Positions 8-52,337 of a DNA stretch of 55,928 nt are shown here, one piece after another. The DNA lies in the NCBI GenBank assembly GCA_009777355.1, contig WRMA01000002.1:1-55928 (forward strand), read 5' to 3'. A program made the translations under genes and the position numbers. How positions within the stretch are numbered: the first letter of the stretch is position 1; every line of letters begins with the position of its first letter. The notes below the pieces were generated by a model that was given only the letters and a program-made list of their open reading frames with translations, made no database searches and had not been told where the DNA came from. Origin of the DNA: Oscillospiraceae bacterium (GTDB lineage Bacteria > Bacillota > Clostridia > Oscillospirales > WRJC01).

Positions 8-34
8 CGGGACGTCGAGGACGCCGTCCCCTAC
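8..34 (-). repeat. REP-like module (GC hairpin ending CCCCTAC, i.e. GTAGGGG on the minus strand)
   Basis: The sequence is cgggacgtcgaggacgccgtcccctac. GGGACG pairs with CGTCCC. The same module type and outer flank (TAAAATACGGGACG) recur inverted at 1648-1680. Confidence 0.6.
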
Positions 35-49
35 AGGAGGATTTTACAT

Positions 50-1606
50 ATGAAACGGTTTTTGGCGGTTGTTTTGGCGGTTGCGATGGTGGCCGCGTTT
101 GTGCCGGCGGCGACGGCGGCGACGACAGCTCAGGATGTGGTTGATGCTATAAATAATTTTGCCCAAAACACCGCCAACGGCAACAACTTAACCGATGCTC
201 CCCTTCACGCAGAAGCACTCACGGTCGGCAACACTGTCGAAGTCAGAGGCATTATGATCGATGTGTCGGCGACGCTCACACTCAACATTCCCGTTGGCGT
301 GACGGTCAAATGGCAAGCGACGGAATTTTCGAGCATAGCTAATTACACCGGCACCCTGATAAAAATTACCGGCGGGGGGACGTTTGAGGTCGCGAATGGC
401 GGCAATATCAGTGTGTTGGGCGAAAGGAGCGCGGCGATTATAGCCGATACAGGAAGCAGCAAAGTAAACGTCAGCGGCAATGGCACGGTCAGCGCGGCGG
501 GCAACGGGAGCGCGGCGATTGTCGTCTTATTCGGCGAAGTCAGCGTCAGTGGCAACGGCACGGTCAGCGCGGATGGCGACGGGAGCATGGCGATTTTCGC
601 CAGCAACCAAAGCGCTGTCAACGTCAGCGGCAACGGCACGGTCAGCACGGTGAAAGGCACAGCGATTTCCGCTTTGGCTTATAGCAACGCAACTATCAGC
701 GGCGGCACGGTCAGCGCGGAGGACGGCGGTAAAGCGATTGACGCCACCGCAAGCGACGTCACCATCGACGGCCCTGTAACCATGAGCGGGACAGTTAATG
801 CGGACATAACAATTACAACAGGCGGCACACTCACGGTGCAGGAGGGCAAGACGCTGACGGTTGAAACAGGCGGCACGATAACGAACGAGGGCACGATTGT
901 CAACAACGGCACAATCAACAGCATAATCGGCGGGATTACAGGCAACGAAGTGGAAGGCGGCGGCACGTTGACTTTCTTTGCGCCGCCGCCACCCGAATCA
1001 ACAGAAACATCAGAAACCCCAGAAACATCAGAAATACCTTACTACATATACTTTGAGCCTACCCCGCCCGCCCCACCGGTTTCGGACGCCGACACGCCGT
1101 CGGACTGGGCAAAAGCGGCGGTCGAGGAAGCGCGGACGCTCGGCCTTGTGCCGGAACATTTGGACGGCAGCTGGCGGCGGTGGCTGAACCGCGCCGAGTT
1201 CGCGGCGTTCGCGGTGCTGCTGTACGAATATCTTGACAGCAGGACGATCACGGCGTGGAGCCTCTTCGACGACACGACCGATGTGAATGTGGAGAAACTT
1301 GCAGGTTTGAGCATAGTAAAAGGCGACGGCACGGGCAATTTCAACCCAAACGGCAACTTTTCCCGCGAAATGGCCCTGACGCTTATGTATAATATTATGA
1401 TTAAGTTAGGCCATTACCTTCCGAGCGCCGAGCCGAGCTTCAGCGACGCGGACGACATTTCCCCGTGGGCGCGCGAGGCGATTGGGGCGCTGCAACGCGC
1501 GGGAATAATCAAGGGCGACGGCACCCGTTTCAACGCGCAGGAAATCTTCAGCCGTGAAATGGGTGTTGTGACCATGGCGCAGATTTTGGAGTGGGTGCAA
1601 CCGTAG
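50..1606 (+). CDS. SLH-domain cell-surface protein with Gly/Thr-rich repeats
   Basis: AGGAGG lies about 8 nt upstream of the ATG. There is a signal peptide (MKRFLAVVLAVAMVAAFVPAATA). About 22-aa V(N/S)VSGNGTVSA repeats are followed by a PPPPESTETSETPETSE linker. The C-terminus has SLH-like segments (DWAKAAVEEARTLGLVP, LAGLSIVKGDGTGNFNP, ISPWAREAIGALQRAGIIKGDG). Confidence 0.8.
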   Translation: MKRFLAVVLAVAMVAAFVPAATAATTAQDVVDAINNFAQNTANGNNLTDAPLHAEALTVGNTVEVRGIMIDVSATLTLNIPVGVTVKWQATEFSSIANYTGTLIKITGGGTFEVANGGNISVLGERSAAIIADTGSSKVNVSGNGTVSAAGNGSAAIVVLFGEVSVSGNGTVSADGDGSMAIFASNQSAVNVSGNGTVSTVKGTAISALAYSNATISGGTVSAEDGGKAIDATASDVTIDGPVTMSGTVNADITITTGGTLTVQEGKTLTVETGGTITNEGTIVNNGTINSIIGGITGNEVEGGGTLTFFAPPPPESTETSETPETSEIPYYIYFEPTPPAPPVSDADTPSDWAKAAVEEARTLGLVPEHLDGSWRRWLNRAEFAAFAVLLYEYLDSRTITAWSLFDDTTDVNVEKLAGLSIVKGDGTGNFNPNGNFSREMALTLMYNIMIKLGHYLPSAEPSFSDADDISPWAREAIGALQRAGIIKGDGTRFNAQEIFSREMGVVTMAQILEWVQP

Positions 1607-1674
1607 GGCGCGATGTCCTCATCGCGCCGTGTACCGCCCCCCCATCCGTAGGGGACGCACACCCGGGCGTCCCG
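1603..1674 (+). repeat. Two tandem REP-like modules (GTAGGG + GC hairpin)
   Basis: The modules are GTAGGGCGCGATgtcctcATCGCGCCG (1603-1629) and GTAGGGGACGCacacccgGGCGTCCCG (1648-1674). The TAG stop of the upstream CDS (1604-1606) lies inside the first GTAGGG. Confidence 0.65.
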
Positions 1675-1696
1675 TATTTATTTTGCCATCCACATT

Positions 1697-1728
1697 AAAA
1701 AGCCCCCGCCGGTTGGCAGGGGCTTTTC
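1697..1728. terminator. Bidirectional intrinsic terminator between convergent genes
   Basis: In aaaaAGCCCCcgccggttggcaGGGGCTtttc, a 6-bp GC stem is flanked by an A-run and a T-run. Confidence 0.6.
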
Positions 1729-10546: not shown

Positions 10547-11434
10547 CTACCGTTTCATCTTAGGGTCAAGGGCGTCGCGCAGCCCGTCGCCTATGAGGTT
10601 AAAGCACATAACCGAAACAGAGATGCCGAGCCCCGGCGGTATCCAGTACCACCAGCGCTGGACCAGCACGATTCTGCTGCGCGCCTCCTGTATAAGCGTG
10701 CCCCAGGTCGGGGTCGGCGGCGCCACGCCCAGTCCAAGGAACGACAGCGCCGTTTCGGTGAGTATGACCGAAGCCATGCCCAGCGTGGCGTATACTATGA
10801 CATACGCCAGCACGTTCGGCAGCAGATGGCGGAAAATGCGCCTGAAATCGCTGATGCCCAGCGCCTCGCACGCCTGCATGTATTCCTGCTCGCGCAGGGC
10901 GAGTATCTGCCCCCTTACGATACGCGCGACGCTGGGCCATGTCAGCAGCACCAGAACGGCGACAAGCACGACCAGACTGTTTCCGAACAGCGCGCGCACC
11001 GTTATAACGAACATAAGGAACGGGAAGCTCATAAACATCTCGCAGAGGCGCATGATCGCGGCGTCTACAAGCCCTCCGTAGTAACCGGCTACCCCGCCCA
11101 TTATAACGCCCACGATACACTCCAGCACCACCACGATCAGCGCGATTCCCAGCGAAATGCGGCCCGCGTAGAAGAAACGCGTCAGCAAATCGCGGCCGAG
11201 ATCGTCGGTGCCGAGCGGATGCTCAACACTGGGCGGCATCTGTTTATTGTCGGTGTTCGTCACGAAATACGAATACGGGGAGAGCATCGGCACCAGAACA
11301 CAGGCCAGCACTATCAGCGCAAGCACAACTATACTGACCATCGCCATCTTGTTTTTTCTCAGGCGGTAAAACACGCTGCCCCAATAGGAGAGCTCGCGCA
11401 CGTCGCGCACCTTTTTGGTCTTAACGGTATCCAT
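10547..11434 (-). CDS. oppC: Oligopeptide ABC transporter permease
   Basis: The BPD-type permease has an EAA-like loop (EACEALGISDFRRIFRHLLPN). Confidence 0.9.
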   Translation of the reverse strand: MDTVKTKKVRDVRELSYWGSVFYRLRKNKMAMVSIVVLALIVLACVLVPMLSPYSYFVTNTDNKQMPPSVEHPLGTDDLGRDLLTRFFYAGRISLGIALIVVVLECIVGVIMGGVAGYYGGLVDAAIMRLCEMFMSFPFLMFVITVRALFGNSLVVLVAVLVLLTWPSVARIVRGQILALREQEYMQACEALGISDFRRIFRHLLPNVLAYVIVYATLGMASVILTETALSFLGLGVAPPTPTWGTLIQEARSRIVLVQRWWYWIPPGLGISVSVMCFNLIGDGLRDALDPKMKR

Positions 11435-12608: not shown

Positions 12609-14246
12609 TCAGTCGATGGTGATCTCATGGATGTTTTGGACCCAAGTCTGATAGGTGCTGATATTCATGCCCTTAACATTGTCGCTGACGGCCCAGATCT
12701 CGTTGCGGTACGCTACGATGACGGTGGGAAGCTCCTCGTTCATAAGCCTTGCCCACTCGTGATAGATCTCGGTGCGTCTGCCCTGATCAAATTCCTGCTT
12801 GCCGAGCGTGATCAGCTCCTGCGACCTCGCGTTGTAGTAGCCGGAGGCGTTGAAGCCGCCCTCGGTGTACGCGTCGTAATCAAACAGCGCTCCCGTCGGA
12901 TCGGGGTCGATACTAAGCGAGAAGCCCATGGTGTAAAGGTCGAAGTTCATTTTCTCGTCCATCGGGGCGTCCATGGTGCGGGCCGCGACGGTGTTGAAGT
13001 CCATCAGCTCGATCTTCAGATCGACGCCCAGCTGTCCCCAGCTGTCATACGCCATTTCCGCCAAGCGGCCGGGCCACGCGACGTCGGTGTAAACCAGCCA
13101 GTTTATCGACATCTTAACGCCGTCTTTTTCAAGGATGCCGTCGGAGCCTTTGACCCAGCCGGCTTCCGCGAACAGAGCGGCGGCTTTGTCCATATCAAAG
13201 GCGTAGTCGTTGATGCCGGAATCCGGGAACGCCCAGGAGGCCGGAGAGATCGGCGCGAGGCCGACGGTGGCCATATCGCCGTAAACGGCTTCGATGAACG
13301 CTACGCGGTCAACGCCGTACATCAGCGCCTGACGCACGCGGGCGTCATTGAGCGTGGGCTGAAGGGTGTTGAAGCAGAGGAACGTATAGCCGTTGCCGAG
13401 GATAATCTGGGGCGTAACGCCGTCCATATCGCGGTAAGCGTTAACGTTATCCTGGTTGCTCTGCGGCTGCGCCACATGCAGGGCGCCGGTGGCAAACGCG
13501 TCGAGCAGGCTCTCTTCGGGAACCTCGGACATCAGGATGCCGCCGATCTTAACGCGCTTGGACCTATCCCAGTAATCGGTGTTCGCGGCGAGCCTGACAA
13601 ATTCCATGGGCCTGTACTCTTCCAGAATGAATTTGCCCGAGCCCATCGGCTTTTCGTTCAGAGCGAGAAATTCGCTCCAAGTGTTAAACCCGTAGTAGTG
13701 TTCCGGCATAATGCCGTAGAGGAACGTTTCGATGTTCGCGGGGCTGGCCTCCTCAAACGTAAACGCGATGGTCTTTTCGTCGATAACCTTAATACCGGCG
13801 AAGTCGGACGACGCGCCGCTGTTGTAATCGGCATAGCCGACCAGACCGGCTACCGCGTAAGCGCGCGGGCCGTTGTAGTCAGGATGGCCGATCGTCTTGT
13901 AGGTAAACGCCACGTCGGCGCTTGTAAGCGGCTGGCCGTCGCTGAACTTGATGCCGTCCTTCAGCGTAAAGGTATAGGTGCGGTTTCCGTTGGACAGCTC
14001 ATACGAGGCGATGTCGCCGTAATACATGCCCTCCGCGTCGTTGTCGATCAAAAAGTCAAAGATAAGGGTTGCCACATAGCTGTCATAGACATTGCTTGCC
14101 ATGATTGAAGCGAAGTTGCCGTCGATACCCGTGGTACCGAACAGAAGGATTTTATCCCCCTGGCCGCCCTGACAGCCGGAAAGAACTACCAGCAGCATGA
14201 GCAGAGTAAGGGACAGCGCTACGATACGTTTTGCTTTTTTCAACAT
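12609..14246 (-). CDS. oppA: Peptide ABC transporter substrate-binding lipoprotein (family 5)
   Basis: There is a signal peptide with lipobox LSGC. The size (about 545 aa) and its position at the head of the oppBCDF genes fit OppA. Confidence 0.85.
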   Translation of the reverse strand: MLKKAKRIVALSLTLLMLLVVLSGCQGGQGDKILLFGTTGIDGNFASIMASNVYDSYVATLIFDFLIDNDAEGMYYGDIASYELSNGNRTYTFTLKDGIKFSDGQPLTSADVAFTYKTIGHPDYNGPRAYAVAGLVGYADYNSGASSDFAGIKVIDEKTIAFTFEEASPANIETFLYGIMPEHYYGFNTWSEFLALNEKPMGSGKFILEEYRPMEFVRLAANTDYWDRSKRVKIGGILMSEVPEESLLDAFATGALHVAQPQSNQDNVNAYRDMDGVTPQIILGNGYTFLCFNTLQPTLNDARVRQALMYGVDRVAFIEAVYGDMATVGLAPISPASWAFPDSGINDYAFDMDKAAALFAEAGWVKGSDGILEKDGVKMSINWLVYTDVAWPGRLAEMAYDSWGQLGVDLKIELMDFNTVAARTMDAPMDEKMNFDLYTMGFSLSIDPDPTGALFDYDAYTEGGFNASGYYNARSQELITLGKQEFDQGRRTEIYHEWARLMNEELPTVIVAYRNEIWAVSDNVKGMNISTYQTWVQNIHEITID

Positions 14247-14371: not shown

Positions 14372-15445
14372 CTATCGCGCCGGGCTGTAAGCGGCCGAAA
14401 GCTCGTCTTTCACAGAGAGAAAAAGGTCTACCAGCGCGGGCTCGAACTGAACTCCGCTCCCCTCTTTGATTATATCAACGGCCTCCTCGTGGGTATACGG
14501 CTGCTTATACGGCCGCTCTGAAATCAGCGCGTCATAGACGTCCACGATGGACATGAGCCGCGCCAGCAGCGGTATATCCTCCCCCTTCAGCCCGTAGGGA
14601 TACCCCTCGCCGTTCCATCTCTCGTGGTGGTACAGCGACAGCACCTTGGCATAGCTCAAAAACTCGCTCTCCGCGGTTTTCTTCTGTATGCTCTCTATGA
14701 CCGTCTCGCCGAACAGCGTATGTTTTTTTATCTGCTCAAACTCCTCCTCGGTGAGCTTTTCCGGTTTCTGAAGTATCCTCTCGTTTATGGCTATCTTCCC
14801 AACGTCGTGAAGCTGCGCCGCCTGCACCACCTGCCCGACGTCCCATCCGCCCGTCTCGCCGCTGTAAAGGCCATTGGCGATCATGCCCTTTATAAGTATC
14901 TCAAGGAACCTCTGCGTCCGCTCTATGTGCCCGTCCGTGACATCCCCGCGGTATTCTATAAGCTCCGACACCGTCGCCATAACGGCGTTTTGAAGCTCGA
15001 CTATCGTCCGCGTTTTATCCTTTACCAGTTCCTCCAGATTATCATTGTATCTTTTCAGCTCTCTCTTCTGCCGCTCGATAAGCAGATGCACCTCGATGCG
15101 CTTCAGCAGCAGCGGCGGCGAGAACGGCTTGTAGATATAGTCTATCGCGCCCAGCGACAGCCCCTCCAGCTCGCTCACCTCGTCGTTTCTGGCGGTGAGG
15201 AATATAACGGGTATATCCGCCGTTTCGGGGTTGGCTTTGAGTATTTTTATTGTTTCATAGCCGTCAAGCTCCGGCATTTCGATGTCCAGCAGTATCATAT
15301 CGGGCCTCACCGTCCCGAGCAGCTCTATGAGCTTTCTGCCGGACGGCACCGTATAGACTTCATATGAGCCGGAGAGTATCTCCCGCCCCACGGTAAGTGT
15401 CACAAGCTGATCGTCGGCCAGCGCGACTATTTTTCTCTCGTTCAT
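14372..15445 (-). CDS. Response regulator with HD-GYP phosphodiesterase output domain
   Basis: The REC domain has LLDIEMPELDGYE. The HD-GYP domain has LHDVGK and HHERWNGEGYPYGL. Confidence 0.9.
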   Translation of the reverse strand: MNERKIVALADDQLVTLTVGREILSGSYEVYTVPSGRKLIELLGTVRPDMILLDIEMPELDGYETIKILKANPETADIPVIFLTARNDEVSELEGLSLGAIDYIYKPFSPPLLLKRIEVHLLIERQKRELKRYNDNLEELVKDKTRTIVELQNAVMATVSELIEYRGDVTDGHIERTQRFLEILIKGMIANGLYSGETGGWDVGQVVQAAQLHDVGKIAINERILQKPEKLTEEEFEQIKKHTLFGETVIESIQKKTAESEFLSYAKVLSLYHHERWNGEGYPYGLKGEDIPLLARLMSIVDVYDALISERPYKQPYTHEEAVDIIKEGSGVQFEPALVDLFLSVKDELSAAYSPAR

Positions 15446-20356: not shown

Positions 20357-20375
20357 AACAAAGAACCTATCCTAT

Positions 20376-20394
20376 GATTGGTGTTGTGAAGGGT
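20376..20394. repeat. Left arm of a perfect 19-bp inverted repeat
   Basis: GATTGGTGTTGTGAAGGGT is the exact reverse complement of 21161-21179. Confidence 0.9.
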
Positions 20395-20534
20395 ATGTGT
20401 CCATTTTACCCATTTATGCCGACAGGCATAAAAGTTGTGATATGATGCAGAATACCATGAAATGGTATATCAATGCGCTGTTGATTGAAGGTGCTTGGTG
20501 ATATTGAAAATTTATATTAGGAGAAGGTGTTACG

Positions 20535-21128
20535 ATAAATAATATTGTTTTTGTTGAGGGTGTTTCCGGCGTAGGTAAGACAACAACAACGACACTGCTG
20601 TTCGAGAAACTTCGGGGCATGGGATATAAAGGGAATTGCTATTTAGAAGGTGCTAACGACAACCCGCTTGACCCGTTTGGAGGTAAATATCCTCCTGTAA
20701 TGTCCATCGAAGAATTTTCTGAAATCTATTTGCAATGCTGGAAAAGGTTTATGGAAGCCAAATTTGACAACGATTTTATAATTGTAGATGGAACATTATT
20801 GCACCATCAGATTAATGATTTAATTCGTGAATATAGTGCATCTGATGAAGTTATTGCAAACCAATTATCAAATTTGTTAAATATAATTCTGCGATTAAAT
20901 CCGATTATATTTTATTTTTCGTCCTGTAATGTAGCCCAGCGTTTGGCACTTGCGTGCAGAAGTCGAAAACAATCAGTGCCTACCGAAGAACAAATCGGGT
21001 TTTGGGAAAATCGTAAGAGAGTAGATTTATATGTCCTTGAAAGACTTCCTATTGAATCTCATATATTAGACGTAGATAATGGTTGGGATTTAATACTTAA
21101 TACAATTGTGGATTATATTACAGTATAA
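20535..21128 (+). CDS. P-loop NTPase, nucleoside/nucleotide-kinase-like (start codon non-canonical or N-terminus lost)
   Basis: The track ORF starts at ATG 20619, but the same frame stays open back to 20508. That stretch encodes a Walker A motif (IVFVEGVSGVGKTTTT). AGGAGAAGG (20519-20527) lies 7 nt before in-frame ATA 20535. There is no in-frame ATG, GTG or TTG between 20508 and 20618. Confidence 0.45.
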   Translation: MNNIVFVEGVSGVGKTTTTTLLFEKLRGMGYKGNCYLEGANDNPLDPFGGKYPPVMSIEEFSEIYLQCWKRFMEAKFDNDFIIVDGTLLHHQINDLIREYSASDEVIANQLSNLLNIILRLNPIIFYFSSCNVAQRLALACRSRKQSVPTEEQIGFWENRKRVDLYVLERLPIESHILDVDNGWDLILNTIVDYITV

Positions 21129-21160
21129 ATATTTTCTACAATAAGCAATATTGGACTTCA

Positions 21161-21179
21161 ACCCTTCACAACACCAATC
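21161..21179. repeat. Right arm of the perfect 19-bp inverted repeat
   Basis: ACCCTTCACAACACCAATC is the exact reverse complement of 20376-20394. Confidence 0.9.
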
Positions 21180-21255
21180 CTAAAACTTATATCTCATCTC
21201 TTAAATCTTAAATATGTATTTCACGGACGAGTAAATTAAAAAGGATGAATCAGAA

Positions 21256-23025: not shown

Positions 23026-23103
23026 GTAGGGGCGATTATTAATCGCCCGCCATATACTGCAAACGCTGGTTGAAATTCACGGGCGATTATTAATCGCCCC
23101 TAC
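23026..23103. repeat. REPIN-like inverted doublet of REP-like modules
   Basis: GTAGGGGCGATtattaATCGCCCG (23026-23049) and its inverted copy CGGGCGATtattaATCGCCCCTAC (23080-23103). Confidence 0.7.
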
Positions 23104-23125: not shown

Positions 23126-23262
23126 TAGACCTCTTGCGAAATTAAAATCCTGATTGTAGGGGCGCGCATTGCGCGTCCGCAAAACCAACGTAATTTTGAC
23201 ATCTTTCAGACGGACGGCCAATGGCCGCCCCTACATGGTAACATGATTTCGCGAGAGGTCTA
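23126..23262. mobile_element. MITE-like palindromic element, family 1 (TIR + REPIN core)
   Basis: The TIRs TAGACCTCTTGCGAAAT and ATTTCGCGAGAGGTCTA match at 16 of 17 positions. They enclose GTAGGGGCGCGCattGCGCGTCCGC and CGGACGGCCaatGGCCGCCCCTAC. Near-identical copies are at 27603 and 30463, and cores alone are at 39073 and 49032. Confidence 0.6.
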
Positions 23263-27605: not shown

Positions 27606-27711
27606 ACCTCTTGCGAAATTAAAATCCTGATTGTAGGGGCGCGCATTGCGCGTCCGCAAAACCAACGCGGTTTTGACGTTTTTCTGACGGACGGCCAATG
27701 GCCGCCCCTAC
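27603..27711. mobile_element. Family-1 element, right TIR missing (truncated)
   Basis: TAGACCTCTTGCGAAATTAAAATCCTGATT plus both GTAGGGG/CCCCTAC modules are nearly identical to 23126-23234. No ATTTCGC..GGTCTA end follows. The first three bases form the bioY stop codon. Confidence 0.6.
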
Positions 27712-29179: not shown

Positions 29180-29281
29180 ATGTTTAAATTTTGATTATAT
29201 AATAAAAATTAATAGATTGTACAAGAAATATATCAAAATATTATATATACTGAAAATAAGTAAATAAATTTAAATATATAC

Positions 29282-29499
29282 GAGTTACGCAGTTGGTTTA
29301 AATCTGCTCCAAAGCCCTCTTTTTTAAAGAGGGTGGCGCGCGGAGATGTTATTTTGATTGAGGCATTGGCGTAAAATCCGCGCGACGGGTGTTTTGAAAT
29401 TTGACGCTGCCGAGGGGAGACAGAAACACCCGCCGTCTGCGGACGGCACCCTCTTTACGAAAGAGGGCAAAGATAGTAAATACATCAAGCGCGTAACTC
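29282..29499. mobile_element. Palindromic element, family 3
   Basis: The ends are GAGTTACGC and GCGTAACTC. Internal local hairpins are GCCCTCTTttttaAAGAGGGT and CCCTCTTTacgAAAGAGGG, plus the shared blocks GACGGGTG and CACCCGCCGTCTGCGGACGGCACCC. Copies are at 45014 and 52061. Confidence 0.6.
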
Positions 29500-30441: not shown

Positions 30442-30462
30442 TTGATAGTTAATAGACTTCTT

Positions 30463-30589
30463 GTGAAACTGCATTACCATGTAGGGGCGGCCATTGGCCG
30501 TCCGTCCGAAAAACATCAAAACTGTGTTAATTTTACGGACGCGCAATGCGCGCCCCTACAATCAAGATTCTAATTTCGCAAGAGGTCTA
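30463..30589. mobile_element. Family-1 element, inverted orientation
   Basis: TAGACTTCTTGTGAAAC ... ATTTCGCAAGAGGTCTA. The core is GTAGGGGCGGCCattGGCCGTCCG ... CGGACGCGCaatGCGCGCCCCTAC, the reverse complement of the 23126 copy. Confidence 0.6.
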
Positions 30590-30611: not shown

Positions 30612-31784
30612 ATGGGTAGCAAAGCGAAAAGGGATATAAATATTGCCGTTATAGGCTCGGGATTTATGGGCAGGACGCACAGTTATTCCGCGGCGAATCT
30701 CAAATTTTTCTATGAGGATTTGCCGTTCAACGCGGTTCTGCATACGATTTGTTCAAGAGATAAAACAAAAGGCGAAGAAATTGCCGGAGAATGGGGATTT
30801 TTAAAATCAGAGACGGATTTGGATAAGATACTCGGTAATCCTGAAATCGACGTTATAGACATATGCTCGCCGAATATATATCATTTCGATATTTTAACGC
30901 GCGCTATTGACGCGGGAAAGCATATATACTGCGAAAAACCGCTCGTAATATCGGCCGAACAGGCCGACGAAGTCATAGAGAAATTAGACAGCGTAAATAA
31001 AAAGATTATATGCGCGGTGGTGTTCCACAACAGATTCTCCCCGGCCGTTCTCAGGGCGAAGCAGATTACGGACGGGAATCTTCTGGGGCGGGTTATTTCT
31101 TTCAGGTGCGCTTATCTTCACAATTCAAATATAGACTTAAACAAAAACGCGGGCTGGAAACAGACTTCTGCCGGAGGAGGAGGCGTTTTGTTTGACCTTG
31201 GTTCGCACGCGATAGATTTAATGCGCTTTTTGTGCTGCGGAAACAATAATAACGGCGATATTATATCAGTTTCGGGAAAATCGCAGATTTTTTTCCCCGT
31301 AAGAAAAGGCGTAGACGGCAAAGAATGGCAGACGGACGCGGACGAGGCTTTTTATATGACCGTTCAGCTCAAAAACGGAGCGGTCGGAACTATCGAGGCG
31401 AGTAAGCTCGCGACGGGAACAAATTCAGACTTGTCGTTTGAGATATACGGCGAAAAAGGCGCGCTTAAATATTCGCTCATGCAGCCGAATTATCTGGAGT
31501 TTTACGATAACTCGAAGCCGGACGGCGATTACGGCGGGGAAAAGGGCTTTACGAAAATAGAGTGCGTTCAGAGATACCCCGCTCCGGGTAATATTTTCCC
31601 GGGGGTGAAAGCTCCTGTCGGGTGGCTGCGTCTGCATATGCACAGCCTGTATTTATATCTTGACGGGGTTTATAGAAATAATTTAAACGAATTGTCGCCG
31701 TCTTTTTACGACGGCGCGGCGGTTCAGAAGATTATGTCGAAGGCTTTGACTTCCGATAAAACCGGCGGCTGGGTATATATATGA
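30612..31784 (+). CDS. Gfo/Idh/MocA-family oxidoreductase
   Basis: An N-terminal Rossmann motif (IAVIGSGFMGRTHS) and EKP (YCEKPL) are present. Length is about 390 aa and there is a GGAGG RBS. Confidence 0.85.
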   Translation: MGSKAKRDINIAVIGSGFMGRTHSYSAANLKFFYEDLPFNAVLHTICSRDKTKGEEIAGEWGFLKSETDLDKILGNPEIDVIDICSPNIYHFDILTRAIDAGKHIYCEKPLVISAEQADEVIEKLDSVNKKIICAVVFHNRFSPAVLRAKQITDGNLLGRVISFRCAYLHNSNIDLNKNAGWKQTSAGGGGVLFDLGSHAIDLMRFLCCGNNNNGDIISVSGKSQIFFPVRKGVDGKEWQTDADEAFYMTVQLKNGAVGTIEASKLATGTNSDLSFEIYGEKGALKYSLMQPNYLEFYDNSKPDGDYGGEKGFTKIECVQRYPAPGNIFPGVKAPVGWLRLHMHSLYLYLDGVYRNNLNELSPSFYDGAAVQKIMSKALTSDKTGGWVYI

Positions 31785-32305
31785 TTACAGAATTTTCAGA
31801 ATTTGTCAAAACGTGCTGTTTTACGGGTCATCGTCCGAAAACCCTGCCGTGGGGTTATGACGAGAGCGATTTAAGATGCGCGGCGCTGAAATCAAGAATT
31901 AGATTTACGCTTGAGAATTTAATAGTTCTGGACGGGTATAATAAATTTATTTCCGGAATGGCAATGGGAGCGGACATGATATGCGCGGAGGTCGTCCTGT
32001 CGCTCAAGGCTTTGTATCCGCATATAAAACTGGAGTGCGCGGTGCCGAGCTATGCGTTTACAGAAAGCTGGAAAGATTCAGACGTTCACAGATTCAGCGG
32101 CATATTAACCAGAGCGGATTCCATAAGATACGTCACGGTCAATAAAATATACAGCAGAAAAGATTTAATGCTTAGGAATATATATATGACCGACGCTTCG
32201 GATATTATTATAGCGGTTTATATAGACGGCGAGAGCGGAGGAACGAGAAACACTATAGATTACGCGAGGGCAAAAAACAAAGAGGTTATAATAATAGAAC
32301 CGTGA
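31781..32305 (+). CDS. SLOG-superfamily protein, DUF1273/YpsA-like
   Basis: CCFTGHRPK near the N-terminus and the GMAMGADM (GxD) motif are typical of the DUF1273/YpsA family. Its start overlaps the upstream stop (ATGA). Confidence 0.65.
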   Translation: MITEFSEFVKTCCFTGHRPKTLPWGYDESDLRCAALKSRIRFTLENLIVLDGYNKFISGMAMGADMICAEVVLSLKALYPHIKLECAVPSYAFTESWKDSDVHRFSGILTRADSIRYVTVNKIYSRKDLMLRNIYMTDASDIIIAVYIDGESGGTRNTIDYARAKNKEVIIIEP

Positions 32306-32379
32306 AAGCAAATAAACAAATTTATTTATTTTATATTTTTATATTTTTATATTTTTTATTTATAGGGGGAAAATTTAAA

Positions 32380-33897
32380 ATGAAAACGAGAAAATTATTG
32401 TTTTTGATTCTGACTGTTCTAATAATTTCTGTTCTGACGGCGGTTACTTCCTGTTCTTCGGAGCCTTCGGGCTCGGGTGACGCGAATATTCCGGGAGGGG
32501 GAGACGCCGGCGAAGATTCTGATTCCGGGCCGTCCGGTTCCGACGGCGAGGTCATAGCTGAAGAAGAAGAAAAATATGAGTTTCCGGATGTTAATTTCGG
32601 AGGTCACAAAATGCGTGTTCTGGGTCCGGACCAATGGTGGGCTATGTCTGCGATGATGTTCGACGAGGAGGAAATGGACGCGGGCGACCCTCTTGACGAC
32701 GCGATTTTCAGAAGAAACCAGATAGTCGAAGAGCATCTTAACATAACGATAGAGGCGACTCTCGTCGCGGGGCCGGAATCGAGGGCGAGAAGGTCTATCC
32801 AGGCGGGCGCCGACGATTACGACGTCGTGTTTACCGATTCTGCTCAGGCGGGAAGCTTGGCAAGCCAGGGATTATATCTGGACTTGCACGGCGTTCCGGG
32901 GCTTAATTTAGAGAAGCCTTACTGGAATCAGCTCGCGCACGAATCCGCCGAACTTCTGGGCAAATTATATTTTACGACTTCGGACGCGAATATAATCACG
33001 AACGACGCTATTTGGGTTTTGTATTATAACAAAAAAATCCACCAGGATTTGGGGCTTGACAGTCCGTATACTTTGGTGAGGGAAGGCAGATGGACTATCG
33101 ACGCGCTTTACGATATGGCGCGCGCCGCCGCAAGAGACATCGACGGAGACGGCAGATGGGCCGCTGACGATATATGGGGAATATCCACTCACGGTCTGGG
33201 ATTTCTCGCCTTTCTCGAATGTCAGGACCAGAGGCTCGTGAGATTAAACGAAAACGGCGAGCCTTATTTAATAAATCCGGACGCCAAATTCGTAGACGCG
33301 TTTACAAAGGCGTTCAGAATCATGAATAAAGAAGACGGCATATGGCTTCACGGCGAGGGAACTTTTGTCGGCAAAACGGCCGATTTAGACCACCAGACAA
33401 AGACTTTTATGGCTGATTTGTCGCTGTTCTGCAGCGAAGTTCTCGGACACGCGAGAGTGTTCAGGGAGATGACTGCCGATTTCGGGCTGCTGCCCCATCC
33501 CAAACACGACGAGTTTCAGGATAAATATTATACTTTCATGATAGACACAGTTCCCGCTTTCGGCATACCCATAACTGCAAATCCCGAGAGAACCGGCGTG
33601 TTTATGGACGCGTTCACGGCGGTATCGGCCGAGACTATTATGCCCGCGTATTACACGATATCTCTCGAGGGTAAATTTACCAGAGACGAAGATTCCATCG
33701 AGATGCTGAATATAATCAGAGACGGACGGATATTCGACCTTGCGGTTCTATATAACTGGGGTACGTTTTACAGTCAGATTATAACTTACGGAACCGGAAG
33801 AGAGGGAACGAACCCGGGTTCGGTTTTTGAAAGATACGGCGACAGGGTGAACACCGCAATCGAGCAGACGCTCGAAAGATACAGAAACATGGAATAA
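32380..33897 (+). CDS. Extracellular solute-binding lipoprotein (large family-1 type), orphan
   Basis: ATG 32380 is preceded by AGGGGGA. There is a signal peptide and lipobox VTSC. It is a paralogue of 21443-22969. The track start at 32302 adds an implausible Phe/Ile-rich leader. Confidence 0.7.
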   Translation: MKTRKLLFLILTVLIISVLTAVTSCSSEPSGSGDANIPGGGDAGEDSDSGPSGSDGEVIAEEEEKYEFPDVNFGGHKMRVLGPDQWWAMSAMMFDEEEMDAGDPLDDAIFRRNQIVEEHLNITIEATLVAGPESRARRSIQAGADDYDVVFTDSAQAGSLASQGLYLDLHGVPGLNLEKPYWNQLAHESAELLGKLYFTTSDANIITNDAIWVLYYNKKIHQDLGLDSPYTLVREGRWTIDALYDMARAAARDIDGDGRWAADDIWGISTHGLGFLAFLECQDQRLVRLNENGEPYLINPDAKFVDAFTKAFRIMNKEDGIWLHGEGTFVGKTADLDHQTKTFMADLSLFCSEVLGHARVFREMTADFGLLPHPKHDEFQDKYYTFMIDTVPAFGIPITANPERTGVFMDAFTAVSAETIMPAYYTISLEGKFTRDEDSIEMLNIIRDGRIFDLAVLYNWGTFYSQIITYGTGREGTNPGSVFERYGDRVNTAIEQTLERYRNME

Positions 33898-33902
33898 AAT
33901 AA

Positions 33903-34060
33903 TAGACCTCTTTTAAAACCGAAATACGACCACCCCGCCCTTCGGGCACCCCTCCGCGGAGGGGAATTAATAAAACGGCGGAGTTGAGTGAAAATTCCCC
34001 TCCGTGGAGGGGTGGCGCGGCGCGTAAGCGGCGTGACGGGGTGGTTTTGAAAGAAGTCTA
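33903..34060. mobile_element. Palindromic element, family 2
   Basis: The termini TAGACCTCTTTTAAAAC and GTTTTGAAAGAAGTCTA match at 15 of 17 positions. Inner arms are GACCACCCCG and CGGGGTGGT. Local hairpins are CCCCTCCgcGGAGGGG, CCCCTCCgtGGAGGGG and GCCGCgtaaGCGGC. Copies are at 46488 and 48867. Confidence 0.65.
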
Positions 34061-34077
34061 ATAAAAAAATATATATT

Positions 34078-38344: not shown

Positions 38345-39073
38345 ATGCATAATCAGAATCATGAAGAAATACTGATGAAAAAAGAAAAAAGAAAGAAAAT
38401 CCTTAAAATTATAGTTCTTTCGGTAACCGGCGTTTTTCTGTTGTCCTTCCTGACGATTTTTATTTTGTCGGCGGTTCAGAACTATATAAACGACAGGGAA
38501 ACCGCAAAAATCGAAGAGGAAAATATCTGGGCGGGACCGTTCCCCGAAGCGAACTACGGATTTAATATCTTTGACGACGCCGCGTATCTGGAACTCGACA
38601 GGAATATCCGGTTCAACGACGGAGGAACCGTGACGGTCATGACCGAAGAAAACAAAAGCTCCTACGCGCCCGAGCTGCAGTTCATGTACGACGCGATTAA
38701 TCTTATAATAAACGGCGACTATACGGAATACAACAAAATCTTCACGGAAGATTATATCGCCGCCGCGGGCGATAATCTGCCGGAGCGCTTTACGATGCAG
38801 CAGCTTTTTGAGATAGAGCTCGAATATCTGGGCAACACCGGACACGCGGGTCATAATCACGCCGGTCAGGTTAATCCCGCAAGCCGTCTCGATATAGACA
38901 TACAGCTGACCTATAAAATAAGAAACAACAACGGAACGTTCAGAAACGACCTCGATTTCGACGCTTCTTATTCCCGCGCCGTCGTTTATATGCTGGTCGC
39001 AGAACCGGACGGCTCCGATATAAAAGTCGATAAGATTCTTACGCAGAGACAGTACGAATCCGGACGGTTTTAG
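38345..39073 (+). CDS. Hypothetical membrane-anchored protein (242 aa)
   Basis: A basic N-terminus and one TM segment (ILKIIVLSVTGVFLLSFLTIFIL) precede a soluble domain. I recognise no family. The last base of its TAG stop is the G of a GTAGGGG module. Confidence 0.5.
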   Translation: MHNQNHEEILMKKEKRKKILKIIVLSVTGVFLLSFLTIFILSAVQNYINDRETAKIEEENIWAGPFPEANYGFNIFDDAAYLELDRNIRFNDGGTVTVMTEENKSSYAPELQFMYDAINLIINGDYTEYNKIFTEDYIAAAGDNLPERFTMQQLFEIELEYLGNTGHAGHNHAGQVNPASRLDIDIQLTYKIRNNNGTFRNDLDFDASYSRAVVYMLVAEPDGSDIKVDKILTQRQYESGRF

Positions 39074-39151
39074 TAGGGGCGCGCATTGCGCGTCCGCAGA
39101 ACCGACGTATTTTTAATGTTTTTCAAACGGACGGCCAATGGCCGCCCCTAC
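39073..39151. repeat. REPIN-like doublet (family-1 core without TIRs)
   Basis: GTAGGGGCGCGCattGCGCGTCCGC (39073-39097) and CGGACGGCCaatGGCCGCCCCTAC (39128-39151). It is wedged between two convergent CDS and overlaps both. Confidence 0.7.
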
Positions 39152-42188: not shown

Positions 42189-42277
42189 GGAAGCGTATCG
42201 AAGCGGTCATAACGGAGCGCACTCGAAATGCGTTTGGGGGCAACCCCACGTGAGTTCGAATCTCACCGCTTCCGCCA
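42189..42277 (+). tRNA. tRNA-Ser (anticodon CGA), CCA encoded
   Basis: The acceptor stem is GGAAGCG/CGCTTCC. The anticodon stem GCGCA/TGCGT has loop CT-CGA-AA. There is a long variable arm (TGGGGGcaaCCCCA) and a T arm GTGAG-TTCGAAT-CTCAC. I folded it by hand. Confidence 0.85.
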
Positions 42278-45013: not shown

Positions 45014-45213
45014 CAGACTTCTTGCATAACTTAAAAATCTGCAGAGAAAGCCCTCTTTTTTAAAGAGGGTGGCAGTCGCGTAAGCGGCTGACGGGTGTTT
45101 CGTACCCAAAGCCCCCTTTGTAAAAGGGGGCTAAACACTCGCCGTCTGCGGACGGCACCCTCTTTACGAAAGAGGGCAAGGAAATTAGATTTCGTAGTTA
45201 TGCAAGAAGTCTA
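45014..45213. mobile_element. Palindromic element, family 3 core with family-1-like termini
   Basis: The termini are (C)AGACTTCTTGCATAACT and AGTTATGCAAGAAGTCTA. The core carries GCCCTCTTttttaAAGAGGGT, GCGTAAGCGGCTGACGGGTG, GCCCCCTTTgtaAAAGGGGGC and CGCCGTCTGCGGACGGCACCCTCTTTacgAAAGAGGG. Confidence 0.6.
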
Positions 45214-46415: not shown

Positions 46416-46487
46416 ATTTACCCAAAATTAATAAATAAATCATATAATTACAATAATTGCGATAATATTTATGTTATAATATTATAT

Positions 46488-46653
46488 TAGACTTCTTGAA
46501 AAACCGAGATACGACCACCCCGCCGTCTGCGGACGGCACCCCTCCACAGAGGGGAATGAGTAAGAAAACGCCGGAGCAGAGTGGAAATTCCCCTCCGTGG
46601 AGGGGTGGCGCGACGCGTAAGCGGCGTGACGGGGTGGTTTTGAAAGAAGTCCA
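46488..46653. mobile_element. Palindromic element, family 2
   Basis: TAGACTTCTTGAAAAAC...GACCACCCCGCCGTCTGCGGACGGCACCCCTCCacaGAGGGG...CCCCTCCgtGGAGGGGTGGCGCGACGCGTAAGCGGCGTGACGGGGTGGTTTTGAAAGAAGTCCA. Confidence 0.65.
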
Positions 46654-46691
46654 TTGAATAAATAAAGAAAAGAAGAGGGGGAATATATAAA

Positions 46692-48812: not shown

Positions 48813-48866
48813 TATACCTCCTGCGAAATCACGTTATACCAAATCGCGAAAAAAATAAACATTTAT

Positions 48867-49029
48867 TAGACCTCTTTCAAAACTGAAATACGACCACCCC
48901 GCCGTCTGCGGACGGCACCCCTCCACGGAGGGGAATTAATAAAACGGCGGAGTTGAGTGAAAATTCCCCTCTGGGGAGGGGTGGCGCGCCGCGTAAGCGG
49001 CGTGACGGGGTGGTTTTGAAAGAAGTCCA
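48867..49029. mobile_element. Palindromic element, family 2
   Basis: TAGACCTCTTTCAAAAC ... GTTTTGAAAGAAGTCCA has the same block order as the 33903 and 46488 copies. A family-1 core follows directly. Confidence 0.65.
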
Positions 49030-49031
49030 TT

Positions 49032-49111
49032 GTAGGGGCGGCCATTGGCCGTCCGTCTGAAAAACGTCAAAATCATATTAGATTTTGCGGACGCGCAATG
49101 CGCGCCCCTAC
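49032..49111. repeat. REPIN-like doublet (family-1 core without TIRs)
   Basis: GTAGGGGCGGCCattGGCCGTCCG ... CGGACGCGCaatGCGCGCCCCTAC. Confidence 0.7.
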
Positions 49112-49118
49112 AATAACA

Positions 49119-50976: not shown

Positions 50977-51091
50977 CTTTACTTACTCTCCTTATTCAAC
51001 CTTAAAAAAATTATTAATATTATATATTATATTATTAAGGCTTGCTTGTCAATAGGCAAAAGTGAATTTTTTATTAATATTTCTATAATAT

Positions 51092-51904
51092 TTATTTCTT
51101 ATTTCCCGAACGTTTCGTTTTGTTCTTCGCTTTTTTCTGTTCTTCGCGGCACATTCTTTTAAGCTCGTTCAGCGCGTCCGAAAGACCGCCTATTTTATTA
51201 ATCAAGCCCGTTTCGACGGCCGTCTCGCCCTCTATGATACTTCCGACGTCGGCGGCAAGCTCGCCCGTGCTGAACATAAACTCCGTTAATTTTTCCTCGC
51301 TTATATCAGAATGGCGCACTATAAATTTATTTATCCTCTCCTGCATTTTGGTAAAATAAGAAAAACTCTGTTCGACGCCTATGACAAGGCCGTTCATTCT
51401 TACGGGGTGGACGGTCATCGTCGCGCTGGGGACTATAAACGATTTTCTCGCGGACACGGCGAGAGGCACGCCGATTGAGTGGCCTCCTCCGAGAACGAGA
51501 GACACAGTCGGTTTTTTCATCGACGCGAGCATTTCGGCTATCGCGAGACCCGCCTCGACGTCTCCTCCGACCGTGTTTAAAATAATAAGCAGACCGTCGG
51601 TTTCGGGGTTTTCCTCTATCGCGACGAGATGGGGTATAATATGCTCGTATTTGGTCGTCTTATTATTCGACGGCAGAAGATAATGACCCTCTACCTGACC
51701 TATAATAGTAAGACTGTTTACGCTTACCCCGCCTTCTTTCGTGGCAATTATACCGGTCTGGTTTATATTATTAATCTGCGTTTCCCTGGTCTGCTCCTCC
51801 GTTAAATCCCCGTTTTCCGTTTCCGTATCGGTTTCAGAGGGAATATCGGGAATAAAATCCTGATTTTTAAAACTATTATATTTTTTATTTTTATTTTTCG
51901 GCAT
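51092..51904 (-). CDS. tepA: ClpP-fold protein, TepA-like
   Basis: IIGQVEGH......[65 protein letters not shown] is typical of the TepA/ClpP class. Confidence 0.7.
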
Positions 51905-52017
51905 GATTTAATATCCTCTTGAATTTTCATTAATATATATTTTTATATATATTATTTGTTCTTTGCCGAAAAATTATTTATATTTTAAAAATACTAATAC
52001 CAAATTGCAATTAAAAT

Positions 52018-52337
52018 GTAGGGCGCGGCGACCCCGACGCGCCGCCGTTAAAAACTACAAGTTACGCAACCGGTTTAAATCTGCTCCAAAGCCCTCTTTT
52101 TTAAAGAGGGTGGCAGTCGCGTAAGCGGCTGACGGGTGTTTTTGAAATTTGATGCTGCGCGAGGGGAGACAAAAACACCCGCCGTCTGCGGACGGCACCC
52201 TCTTTACGAAAGAGGGCAAAGATGGTAAATACGTCGAGCGCGTAACTCGTGAAAACCAACGTAAATTCGCATCGCGCCGTAAAAAACCGCCGGCATTGGG
52301 TTGGAATCCCCGGCGCGTCGGGGGCGCCGCGCCCTAC
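52018..52337. repeat. Composite: family-3 element (52061-52246) nested inside a REPIN-like doublet
   Basis: The outer pair is GTAGGGCGCGGCGaccccgaCGCGCCGCC (52018-52046) and its inverted copy (52311-52337). The inner element runs from GTTACGC... to ...GCGTAAC. The spacer motif GAAAACCAACGTAAATT matches the family-1 spacer AAAACCAACGTAATTT at 23181. Confidence 0.65.

Follow-up and report, generated by a model that had tools for sequence, protein, structure and literature searches.

GTAG-footed hairpin modules in an Oscillospiraceae contig as probable REPs and REPINs of a RAYT-serviced system

Results

Architecture of the modules

The window, by which we mean the whole 55.9-kb contig that was analysed, carries GTAGGG at 22 sites on its two strands, and 21 of these are linked to a hairpin, the number given in the original prediction (~0.38 modules per kb). 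Each module is 24-27 nt long and folds into a GC-rich hairpin with a stem of 7-9 bp and a loop of 3-6 nt. The stem starts at position 5, straight after GTAG, in 21/21 modules; GTAGGG is thereby dissected into GTAG and the two G-C pairs with which the stem opens. The stems are of at least eight kinds, where at least seven had been claimed. All 21 modules are extragenic or touch just stop codons and gene ends, as predicted, and the single GTAGGG without a hairpin (14594-14599) is a chance copy within a response-regulator gene. The label 'Clostridia-like' is appropriate, given the SLH-domain proteins and the nearest homologues (~80% amino acid identity), which come from Oscillospiraceae MAGs. The nearest metagenome contigs have sample codes in common with termite-gut MAGs.

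Nine head-out inverted pairs take in 18 of the 21 modules, again as proposed, with spacers of 27-266 nt. These doublets are predicted to fold as long hairpins (z-scores -2.8 to -8.8). The remaining three modules are singlets. The first, GTAGGGGACGGCGTCCTCGACGTCCCG at 8-34 on the minus strand, adjoins the RBS of gene 50-1606, which encodes an SLH protein, and has a T-rich tail. At the other end of this ORF lies GTAGGGCGCGATGTCCTCATCGCGCCG (1603-1629, plus strand), in which the TAG of GTAG is the stop codon; read in frame, the module gives VGRDVLIAP, a peptide also found within RAYT proteins of the clade of L126, the closest syntenic relative. The third singlet, GTAGGGGACGCACACCCGGGCGTCCCG (1648-1674, plus strand), stands in direct tandem with the second and is followed by a T-rich tail.

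The 78-nt doublet at 23026-23103, with arms GTAGGGGCGATTATTAATCGCCCG and GTAGGGGCGATTAATAATCGCCCG, is predicted to fold as a single long hairpin (-27 kcal/mol, z -8.2). Upstream of bioY, an outer doublet (26708-26932, arms GTAGGGCGCGGCTTCCATGCCGCGCCG, 31-nt arms 97% complementary) encloses an inner one of 85 nt (26765-26849), whose minus-strand arm, GTAGGGCGCGACGCCCTCGGCGCGCCG (26823-26849), matches exactly both REPs inside the RAYT gene of L126 as well as REPs in L209. The doublet at 52018-52337, with arms GTAGGGCGCGGCGACCCCGACGCGCCG and GTAGGGCGCGGCGCCCCCGACGCGCCG (29-nt arms 97% complementary), has a long spacer because another repeat, in a 193-nt copy (52056-52248), is nested in it; that repeat recurs at 29279-29499 and 45047-45182. 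Its 52018 arm reads VGRGDPDAP, a peptide also present in RAYTs.

The other five doublets form one family, F1, of 79-80 bp. The copy at 23156-23234 (plus, 79 nt) consists of the arm GTAGGGGCGCGCATTGCGCGTCCG, a 31-nt spacer and the inverted arm GTAGGGGCGGCCATTGGCCGTCCG, and is nested inside a 137-nt element bounded by TAGACCTCTTG (23126-23262). The next lies downstream of bioY (27633-27711, plus, 79 nt), with a left TAGACCTCTTG terminus at 27603. The copy at 30481-30559 (minus, inverted orientation, 79 nt) separates the LysR and GFO oxidoreductase genes within a 137-nt composite at 30453-30589. That at 39073-39151 (plus, 79 nt) sits between convergent ORFs and overlaps the stop regions of both, and the last (49032-49111, minus, inverted orientation, 80 nt) is found between a GGDEF gene and PEPCK, adjoining the end of another repeat (48855-49031). 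In all, 3/5 F1 REPINs sit within a larger TAGACYTCTTG-bounded composite; another element may have carried some of the copies along as passengers.

Exact F1 arms occur ten times in the window against 0 expected, and no arm copy with 1-3 mismatches was found there. The arms are invariant at 48/48 columns, compared with 15/32 spacer columns (Fisher 6e-9), and the spacers are diverged by 19-34% among the five copies. The five copies have a common, genome-specific spacer that is unlike the spacers in other genomes. Conserved arms around a variable spacer are the pattern described for REPINs, and the combination of a common spacer family, constant arms and varying spacers indicates that the doublet is copied as a unit, as far as can be read from aligned copies.

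Enrichment and stem pairing

The null model comprised 200 dinucleotide-preserving shuffles in which two GC compartments were shuffled separately. Shuffled windows contain a mean of 0.5 and a maximum of 5 hairpin-linked GTAGGG sites, compared with 21 in the real sequence, and pattern matches number 10 versus 0.00 expected (F1 arms) and 5 versus 0.01. GTAGGG by itself is mildly over-represented (22 seen, 13.8 expected), which is the one observation that would suit a chance co-occurrence of the hexamer with palindromes in GC-rich intergenic DNA; the shuffles refute that reading outright. The REP/REPIN grammar proposed for these modules is borne out by the same excess.

The grammar extends to other genomes, where 816 kb yielded 395 modules with 164 distinct hairpins. 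The stem again starts right after GTAG in 367/395 modules, and head-out pairs predominate, their lengths peaking at 67-77 nt. A fuller consensus, from 388 modules, reads Y-GTAG-GG...CC-G; position -1 is a pyrimidine in 92% of them and position +1 a G in 93%. The window modules fall into at least two superfamilies, GTAGGGGCG...CGYCCG and GTAGGGCGCG...CGCGCCG, and exact 24-27-mers are common to different families and phyla.

A set of 55 different 24-mers, all alike in geometry, has compensatory changes on both sides in 6/8 stem pairs and an unvarying GTAGGG; a G-T pair occupies stem position 3 in 21/55. This set was pre-filtered for pairing and is to that extent circular: it illustrates pairing and is not independent proof, so the independent test is the shuffle control on the window. 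Read with that reservation, the variants suggest that selection acts on the structure of the modules and not on their sequence.

Hairpins of this kind, many of them right after stop codons or between convergent genes, could also be purely functional RNA or DNA structures (terminators, mRNA 3'-end stabilisers) that arose convergently and are immobile. T-rich tails on three modules fit such a role, but a T-run follows just these 3/21 window modules and 28/367 in other genomes, counts on which an intrinsic-terminator reading is rejected. Rfam at gathering thresholds returned one tRNA and nothing else, leaving the modules without a family match. Convergent, immobile hairpins would also not be expected to share exact 24-27-mers across families and phyla, or to lie either way round, upstream of genes, inside one another, and in frame within coding sequences and RAYT genes. 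We therefore regard a purely functional origin as extremely improbable. A secondary host role may exist alongside mobility, and protection of mRNA 3' ends is one candidate function at the host level.

RAYT genes in relatives

Neither an HMM made from clostridial RAYTs nor E. coli RayT as a query picked out a RAYT-like ORF in the window, in agreement with the original prediction. The proposed search for Y1/HUH genes succeeded in relatives, where RAYT-like genes are flanked by, and contain, these exact hairpins. Among 120 loci fetched by REP pattern, 8 have a RAYT-like ORF with a REP inside or adjoining it, and these ORFs carry NHIH, WQ and YIDENP motifs. The best NCBIfam match is NF047646, REP-associated tyrosine transposase, with E-values of 1e-16 to 1e-19 for 5/6 ORFs and scores under the curated cut-off of that model. 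Compared with the PDB, the clade profile matches TnpAREP (4ER8) at E 7e-10 and IS200-type TnpA at 0.02. Residues H83, H85, W123, Q124 and Y144 are invariant in the clade, and JGI names its members 'REP element-mobilizing transposase RayT'. Pfam Y1_Tnp is a poor detector of the clade, giving 0-1 weak matches, with a weak signal or none for several ORFs. Searches matched at least 7,895 and at least 3,371 protein clusters at 90% identity, two sets that may overlap. By homology, then, the relatives' proteins are assigned to the HUH/Tyr (Y1) class, nearer to TnpAREP than to IS200 TnpA, and they are encoded in chromosomal contexts.

This assignment bears on the idea that the modules are MITE-like derivatives of IS200/IS605 (PATE-type), moved by a classical multi-copy TnpA(IS200) and not by a domesticated RAYT. 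Such transposases are common in Clostridia and likewise use subterminal hairpins with a guide tetranucleotide, and some RAYT-like ORFs have weak matches to IS200 models. The associated proteins nonetheless are much closer to the RAYT model and the TnpAREP structure than to IS200 TnpA; the genes examined stand singly in housekeeping operons without tnpB; and a stem resting on a GTAG foot is the canonical mark of REPs. Neither tnpA nor tnpB was detected in the window or beside the RAYTs examined. On profile comparison and gene context an IS200/IS605 identity is rejected, and we give the MITE-like explanation very little credence.

The RAYT genes themselves carry REPs. In-frame REP peptides occupy two fixed sites, in 103/120 and 112/120 homologues, one per orientation on either side of the HUH motif and at fixed loop positions. 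The peptide VGARIARP is the translation of GTAGGGGCGCGCATTGCGCGTCCG, and GRAMRAPT that of its complement; a second RAYT clade carries VGRDALGAP, VGRGDPDAP and VGRDVLIAP, corresponding to the window modules at 26849, 52018 and 1603. Matches to window REPs from Synergistaceae and Dehalococcoidales also fall within RAYT genes. Matching REPs occur both in the gene and within ~100 nt of it at eight RAYT loci (L126, L209, L014, L056, L008, L009, L092 and L206), and at two further loci (L207, L208) dispersed REPs are absent within 10 kb.

Both of the closest examinable relatives, L126 and the WRHM01 MAG, have RAYT-like ORFs, at different loci. The L126 gene (10554-11069) follows the YpsA orthologue and lies two genes downstream of the corresponding spot. 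In the WRHM01 MAG, the 27-mer of window positions 26823-26849 is dispersed near the RAYT. We consider it probable, from these relatives, that the window genome encodes such RAYTs, most likely two or more.

The alternative is that the modules are relics, REPs and REPINs by descent whose RAYT or RAYTs have been lost and which are now immobile, kept by host use or decaying slowly. The contig has no RAYT, at the place of the L126 gene the window has just a spacer rich in A and T and a gene for an unrelated lipoprotein, and E. coli strains with REPINs and no RAYT are described. Against decay stand the F1 arms, all ten exact with no copy at 1-3 mismatches despite the divergence of the spacers, which speaks for ongoing constraint or turnover. 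Since RAYTs lie at different loci in the two closest relatives, both of which retain them, absence from one 56-kb contig tells little. A relic system appears unlikely.

Occupancy at orthologous sites

Relatives differ in the sites that are occupied, as a comparison suggested in the original prediction reveals. The REPIN between LysR and GFO is present in the window only; in L202, L203 and L205 it is missing and the two genes overlap. L126 has in-frame REPINs in its GFO gene and in a Met-gamma-lyase-like gene, L202 and L205 have an in-frame REPIN in a radical-SAM linker, and the L126 radical-SAM orthologue has a single in-frame REP near the N-terminus. The window ORF at 32302-33897 was considered as a radical-SAM orthologue and rejected; it encodes a lipoprotein, so synteny with the relatives stops after YpsA. 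The differences in occupancy support mobility, to the degree that comparison of orthologous sites can. As the nearest relatives have just ~73-80% protein identity, these differences span long evolutionary times and are no proof of recent transposition; with the closest GFO oxidoreductase homologues at ~80%, presence/absence comparisons are deep only, not fine-scale.

Discussion

We judge it highly probable that the modules are REPs, mostly paired as REPINs, of a RAYT-serviced system. In the mechanism that we propose from homology to E. coli TnpAREP, every REP would fold when the DNA is single-stranded, and the product of a single-copy RAYT gene, an HUH/Tyr ssDNA endonuclease-ligase, would recognise the hairpin together with the GTAG tetranucleotide. 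The enzyme would then cut and rejoin the DNA adjoining the REP hairpin, and the doublet would now and then be copied or moved to fresh extragenic or tolerant in-frame sites. Cognate RAYT genes contain in-frame REPs, so the REP sequence travels with the enzyme gene. By analogy, the RAYTs are presumed to be catalytically active on the window hairpins; cleavage and rejoining of REPs in ssDNA by a RAYT are known for E. coli TnpAREP alone (Ton-Hoang 2012; Messing 2012, PMC3479197).

More tentatively, Clostridia and neighbouring anaerobes might hold a very large, virtually undescribed REPIN-RAYT radiation in which RAYT genes have a built-in inverted REP pair that matches the dispersed family, though we would not call this likely. 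If it were true, the RAYT gene would carry, in heritable form, a template or 'barcode' of specificity for its REPs, which would account for the identical 24-27-mers that recur across families and even phyla. A transferred RAYT could then found a REPIN population anew in the host that receives it, and in-frame REPIN insertion would regularly give rise to linker variants in clostridial proteins. The view of REPINs as limited to Group 2/3 RAYTs would be contradicted.

Work on REP/REPIN-RAYT systems has so far dealt almost wholly with Proteobacteria and Cyanobacteria. With the whole of this grammar, from the GTAG foot and compensated hairpins through asymmetric doublets and nesting to in-frame insertions and REP-carrying RAYTs, gut anaerobes of the Oscillospiraceae type offer a large and diverse natural data set, which could test hairpin recognition by RAYTs because the in-gene REP 'barcode' pairs with the dispersed family. 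For work on MAGs, these repeats break up assemblies, yield spurious 'hypothetical proteins', are mistakable for contamination, and leave odd peptide inserts such as VGARIARP, GRAMRAPT and VGRDALGAP.

Comparison with known systems

The scant characterisation in Firmicutes that had been supposed agrees with the literature searched. Di Nocera et al. 2013 (PMC3733652) describe 24 families of the GTAG-tagged REP superfamily, drawn from Proteobacteria, Cyanobacteria, Chloroflexi and PVC, with none from Firmicutes; like the present modules, they are stem-loops, with several families per genome and in-gene insertions. Clostridia are named by Bertels et al. 2017 solely for Group 1 RAYTs, which are not linked there to REPINs; Table S1 of Quentin et al. 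2018 (PMC6006769) has zero clostridial entries; and a literature search that combined RAYT with clostridial taxon names returned nothing relevant.

IS200/IS605 ends and MITEs share with the modules a hairpin/guide-tetranucleotide logic on ssDNA and the HUH/Tyr fold. IS structure, tnpB and a multi-copy transposase are lacking here, and the protein profile favours TnpAREP. The E. coli REP/BIME and RayT system (PMC3479197) has the same 5' GTAG foot, imperfect GC hairpins and extragenic placement, and pairs two REP variants in inverted orientation, Y and Z there and GCGCGC and GCGGCC arms here. Its TnpAREP (PDB 4ER8) is structurally the closest homologue of the relatives' RAYT-like protein, although the two proteins are not much alike (E 0.07 for a single sequence, 7e-10 for the profile). 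Hairpins in E. coli are longer, with bulges, and the rayT gene there is without internal REPs. Pseudomonas REPINs with Group 2/3 RAYTs (Bertels and Rainey 2011, PMC3116915) resemble the present doublets as replicating units with conserved arms and a variable spacer, and in the chromosomal context of the transposase gene, which is single-copy in Pseudomonas. Just Groups 2 and 3 are REPIN-associated in that literature, whereas the clade described here appears to belong to neither, and its hosts are Gram-positive anaerobes.

A close likeness exists to the TnpAREP REPtrons of subclass 2.4 (Quentin et al. 2018, PMC6006769), which correspond to RAYT Group 4 of Bertels et al. 2017 and are found mainly in Cyanobacteria and Bacteroidetes; the comparison was made by motifs and REP grammar. 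In both, GTAG precedes a stem that opens with G-C pairs, and both share the GTAGGGGCG head, which occurs 68 times in Table S1 of that study. Both also have REPs in frame within the tnpAREP gene, NH[IFV]H (here NHIH/NHVH) and WQ motifs with no C-terminal tail, and double-foot REPs, seen here in relatives (L204:3376-3404 and L205:6048-6075). The present system differs in its clostridial host, in its short hairpins (8-9 bp stems, where theirs are 'long'), in an HUH-to-Tyr distance of ~60 aa against their median of 88, and in a Tyr motif of YI[DE]xNP against YIxNNP. In-gene REPs fall at two fixed sites here, one of them upstream of HUH, and in one variable region there. With the GTAGGGGCG head and in-gene REPs already published for subclass 2.4, the kind is a known one and the mechanism itself is not new; it is a known system carried into a group, the Oscillospiraceae, where it has hardly been described.

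GTAGGG modules in the window

The window contains 22 copies of GTAGGG (13.8 expected), and 21 of them carry a GC-rich hairpin (stem 7-9 bp, loop 3-6 nt) whose stem starts at position 5, immediately after GTAG. In 200 dinucleotide-preserving shuffles, run separately on its high- and low-GC compartments, hairpin-linked GTAGGG averaged 0.5 with a maximum of 5. The sole hairpin-less copy, at 14594, is a chance hexamer within the coding sequence of a response regulator. With degenerate patterns, the two main REP families yield 10 matches versus 0.00 expected and 5 versus 0.01 expected. Of the 21 modules, 18 are arranged as nine head-out inverted pairs and the other three stand alone as singlets; every module is intergenic or overlaps a gene no further than its stop codon or end. 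The original prediction, 21 GTAGGG hairpin modules with 18 of them paired and all between genes or at gene ends, was right in every checkable detail. The gene neighborhood is ordinary chromosomal, including SLH proteins, BioY, LysR, a GFO/IDH/MocA oxidoreductase (GFO), a GGDEF protein, PEPCK, a ClpP-like protein, SAICAR synthase, and FeoB. A T-rich tail follows 3 of the 21 modules, and an Rfam search of the window returned no family matching them.

Module and doublet anatomy

In the invariant GTAGGG, the final GG after GTAG already belongs to the stem, where it forms the first two G-C pairs. In a set of 388 modules from the window and other genomes, the consensus extends to Y(-1, 92%)-GTAG-GG...CC-G(+1, 93%). 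The commonest family in the window, F1, is a 79-80 bp REPIN with five copies (23156-23234, 27633-27711, 30481-30559, 39073-39151, and 49032-49111), laid out as GTAGGGGCGCGCATTGCGCGTCCG, a spacer of ~31 nt, and inverted GTAGGGGCGGCCATTGGCCGTCCG. The arms differ from each other at four positions, so that each is self-complementary, and a fold of one arm onto the other contains two 2x2 internal loops. This asymmetry resembles that between the Y and Z REPs paired in E. coli BIMEs. On the GTAG strand, the third pair of the stem is G-T in both arms. As single-stranded DNA, the doublets fold into single long hairpins (z-scores -2.8 to -8.8).

Across copies, all ten F1 arms in the window are identical, and no arm copy with 1-3 mismatches was found there. 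Invariant columns number 48/48 in the arms versus 15/32 in the spacer (Fisher 6e-9). The F1 spacer family is peculiar to the window contig, F1-type doublets of other genomes having unrelated spacers, which indicates that the unit copied within this lineage is the doublet rather than the single REP. Two pairs are wide because other elements are nested inside them: the doublet 26765-26849 in 26708-26932, and one copy (193 nt) of an unrelated repeat in 52018-52337.

Modules in other genomes

A degenerate F1 arm scan of one genome per species matched at least 120 stretches. Most of those listed come from Oscillospiraceae, Acutalibacteraceae, Faecousia, Ruminococcus, and other Clostridia MAGs, with further matches in isolates (Petroclostridium sp. 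X23, Acetobacterium fimetarium) and in MAGs labeled Synergistaceae, Dehalococcoidales, and Bulleidia. The Synergistaceae (L009) and Dehalococcoidales (L056, L115) matches fall within RAYT genes. The 816 kb of listed stretches hold 395 GTAGG-plus-hairpin modules with 164 distinct hairpins, 367 of the modules having G at position 6, and the dominant arrangement is again the head-out pair (n = 103, length peak 67-77 nt). Among 55 distinct 24-mers of F1 geometry, compensatory two-sided changes affect 6 of 8 stem pairs while GTAGGG stays constant; because this set was pre-selected for pairing, it is an illustration of the constraint and no independent proof. The third stem pair is G-T in 21 of the 55 variants.

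RAYT genes with built-in REPs

Searches with E. coli RayT and with an HMM from the first RAYT matches found no RAYT-like ORF in the window, as had been predicted, and found such ORFs in 8 of the 120 listed pattern-fetched loci. The proteins are 155-180 aa long and carry the motifs MPNHIHM (HUH), WQ, and DY..W.YIDENP (catalytic Tyr region). In NCBIfam they match best to NF047646, 'REP-associated tyrosine transposase', with all six ORFs tested scoring under its curated cut-off; E is 1e-16 to 1e-19 in five of them and 3e-6 in the sixth, the truncated ORF of L009. The Pfam Y1_Tnp match is weak. A 27-sequence RAYT profile matches PDB 4ER8 (E. coli TnpAREP) at 7e-10 versus 0.02 for IS200-type TnpA, and in JGI, proteins of the clade are named 'REP element-mobilizing transposase RayT'. 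This uncharacterized clade is a large one, with at least 7,895 clusters with one query (E<=1e-10) and 3,371 with a second.

In all eight loci the REP pattern lies in frame inside the RAYT ORF, and often also 30-100 nt from the gene ends. The two F1 arms translate to VGARIARP and VGAAIGRP and the complement to GRAMRAPT; such a peptide follows the first beta strand in 103 of 120 homologues and stands just after the HUH motif in 112 of 120. Intact DNA hairpins occupy both in-gene sites in the Fumia xinanensis and Ruminococcaceae MAG genes, which were found via protein similarity alone. A second RAYT clade contains the peptides VGRDALGAP/GAPRASRPT, VGRGDPDAP, and VGRDVLIAP. Read in frame, window modules 26849, 52018, and 1603 give VGRDALGAP, VGRGDPDAP, and VGRDVLIAP, respectively; the F1 arms and three GTAGGGCGCG-type modules thus have exact counterparts within RAYT genes elsewhere. 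Counterparts of the remaining window stems (e.g., 26708, 23026) were not found among the RAYT genes examined. This gene-repeat coupling is unusually tight and could be exploited experimentally.

We note that RAYT genes of the clade almost always hold a REP in sense and another in antisense orientation, at two fixed positions flanking the HUH motif, as in loci L034, L014, L008, L056, L043, L009, L115, and L207 and in L126:10554-11069, L206:10001-10486, and L209:10001-10525. RAYTs P0244, P0278, and P0309 contain multiple REPs in tandem.

Closest relatives and mobility

The best relatives of the window GFO oxidoreductase (30612-31784) are 73-80% identical and come from metagenome contigs sharing sample codes with termite-gut MAGs and from one Oscillospiraceae MAG. 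Contig L126 is syntenic with the window over LysR, GFO, and YpsA, and its RAYT (10554-11069) directly follows YpsA; both internal REPs of this gene, GTAGGGCGCGACGCCCTCGGCGCGCCG, are identical to window 26823-26849. In the WRHM01 MAG, a GFO orthologue and a RAYT 75% identical to that of L126 share one 775-kb contig. The 27-mer of window 26823-26849 lies inside this RAYT and is dispersed nearby, with an F1 REP 50 nt upstream. The WRHM01 gene (L209:10001-10525) sits between fabG and fabF in a fatty-acid synthesis operon and that of L126 after ypsA, that is, in different housekeeping operons, so the RAYT gene has no stable chromosomal position in this clade. Judging from these two relatives, whose RAYTs carry window REPs, a RAYT of the L126/WRHM01 type is very likely present in the window's genome, and the two REP superfamilies of the window suggest that there is probably more than one.

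Occupancy differs among these genomes. LysR and GFO overlap in relatives L202, L203, and L205; in the window, a 137-nt composite with an F1 REPIN lies between them, and the C-terminal tail of LysR is shorter. The relatives in turn have in-frame REPIN insertions that are missing from the window and from other relatives: a 26-aa REPIN in the GFO oxidoreductase (L126:9166-9260), a REP doublet in a Met-gamma-lyase-like gene (L126:11675-11758), doublets of different families in the same linker of a radical-SAM/B12 protein (L202:14291-14369, L205:14321-14403), and a single REP near the N-terminus of its orthologue (L126:~13345-13372). In L204 and L126 unrelated repeats occupy that linker, a hot spot at which different repeat families have inserted. 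In-frame insertions add peptides of 7-30 residues, for example VGRDALGTP...GSPRPT. Since these comparisons span ~20-27% protein divergence, the differences show turnover over long times rather than recent jumps.

Other repeats and the GC step

A second repeat family in the window has the inverted termini TAGACYTCTTG...CAAGARGTCTA (11 matches vs 1 expected), with copies at 23126-23262, 27603-~27740, 30453-30589, 33903-34060, 45014-45213, 46488-~46668, and 48867-~49031. An F1 REPIN makes up the interior of three copies and directly adjoins a fourth, so that part of its spread may be as a passenger of this element, or it may prefer the element as an insertion site. Repeats built around ACGACCACCCCGCCGTCTGCGGACGGCACCCCTCCACGGAGGGGAAT, a core that folds into two small hairpins, lie at 33891-34075, 46476-46668, and 48855-49031 and have no match in Rfam. 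This family also looks mobile, because a related sequence encoding IPLRGGVP is inserted in frame in the L204 radical-SAM protein. A third repeat of ~190 nt (29279-29499, 45047-45182, 52056-52248) contains an internal inverted repeat, GCCCTCTTT..AAAGAGGGC, and its last copy is nested in the spacer of REP doublet 52018-52337.

GC content steps sharply from ~57% in 1-20.4 kb to ~44% in 20.4-55.9 kb, a change that could be due to an acquired island or to chimeric assembly. A low-GC cassette (~20360-21190), flanked by 31-nt inverted repeats (20373-20403/21152-21182), sits at the step; its ORF has a P-loop, GVSGVGKTT, and no match in a Pfam search. REPs occur in both compartments, those of each belonging to different families. 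Tandem-like repeats of 75-81 nt at 401-736 (GGCACGGTCAGCGCGG...), inside an SLH-domain protein gene (50-1606), probably encode a repetitive surface-protein region. The window also contains genes for tRNA-Ser(CGA) (42189-42277; an ARAGORN call that Rfam did not reproduce at the gathering score) and tRNA-Thr(TGT) (55699-55774).

Comparison with known systems

A GTAG foot with a hairpin, inverted doublets, and RAYT association are the defining traits of REP/BIME/REPIN systems. The REP/REPIN reading of the original prediction is supported by this grammar, by the RAYT link in relatives, and by the occupancy differences; the modules are a real REP/REPIN-RAYT-type feature of a known kind, here in Clostridia, with no new mechanism. 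Clostridia are missing from the phyla of Di Nocera (PMC3733652) and from the table of Quentin et al. 2018 (PMC6006769), and Bertels 2017 mentions them only for Group 1 RAYTs, without a REPIN link there. The Bertels-Rainey literature restricts REPINs to Group 2/3 RAYTs, a statement with which the Clostridia data, like those of Quentin, are at odds.

Subclass 2.4 TnpAREP (Quentin et al. 2018, PMC6006769) corresponds to Bertels Group 4 and is characterized by NH[IFV]H, WQ, and YIxNNP motifs, stem-base G-C pairs, 'double-foot' REPs, and in-frame in-gene REPs; in Table S1 of that study, 68 REPs, from cyanobacteria, start with GTAGGGGCG. Unlike subclass 2.4, the present system has Clostridia as host, short hairpins, a HUH-to-Tyr spacing of ~60 aa, the Tyr motif YI[DE]xNP, and in-gene REPs at two fixed sites. 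Double-foot REPs do occur in relatives of the window, and by its described traits subclass 2.4 is the closest known system.
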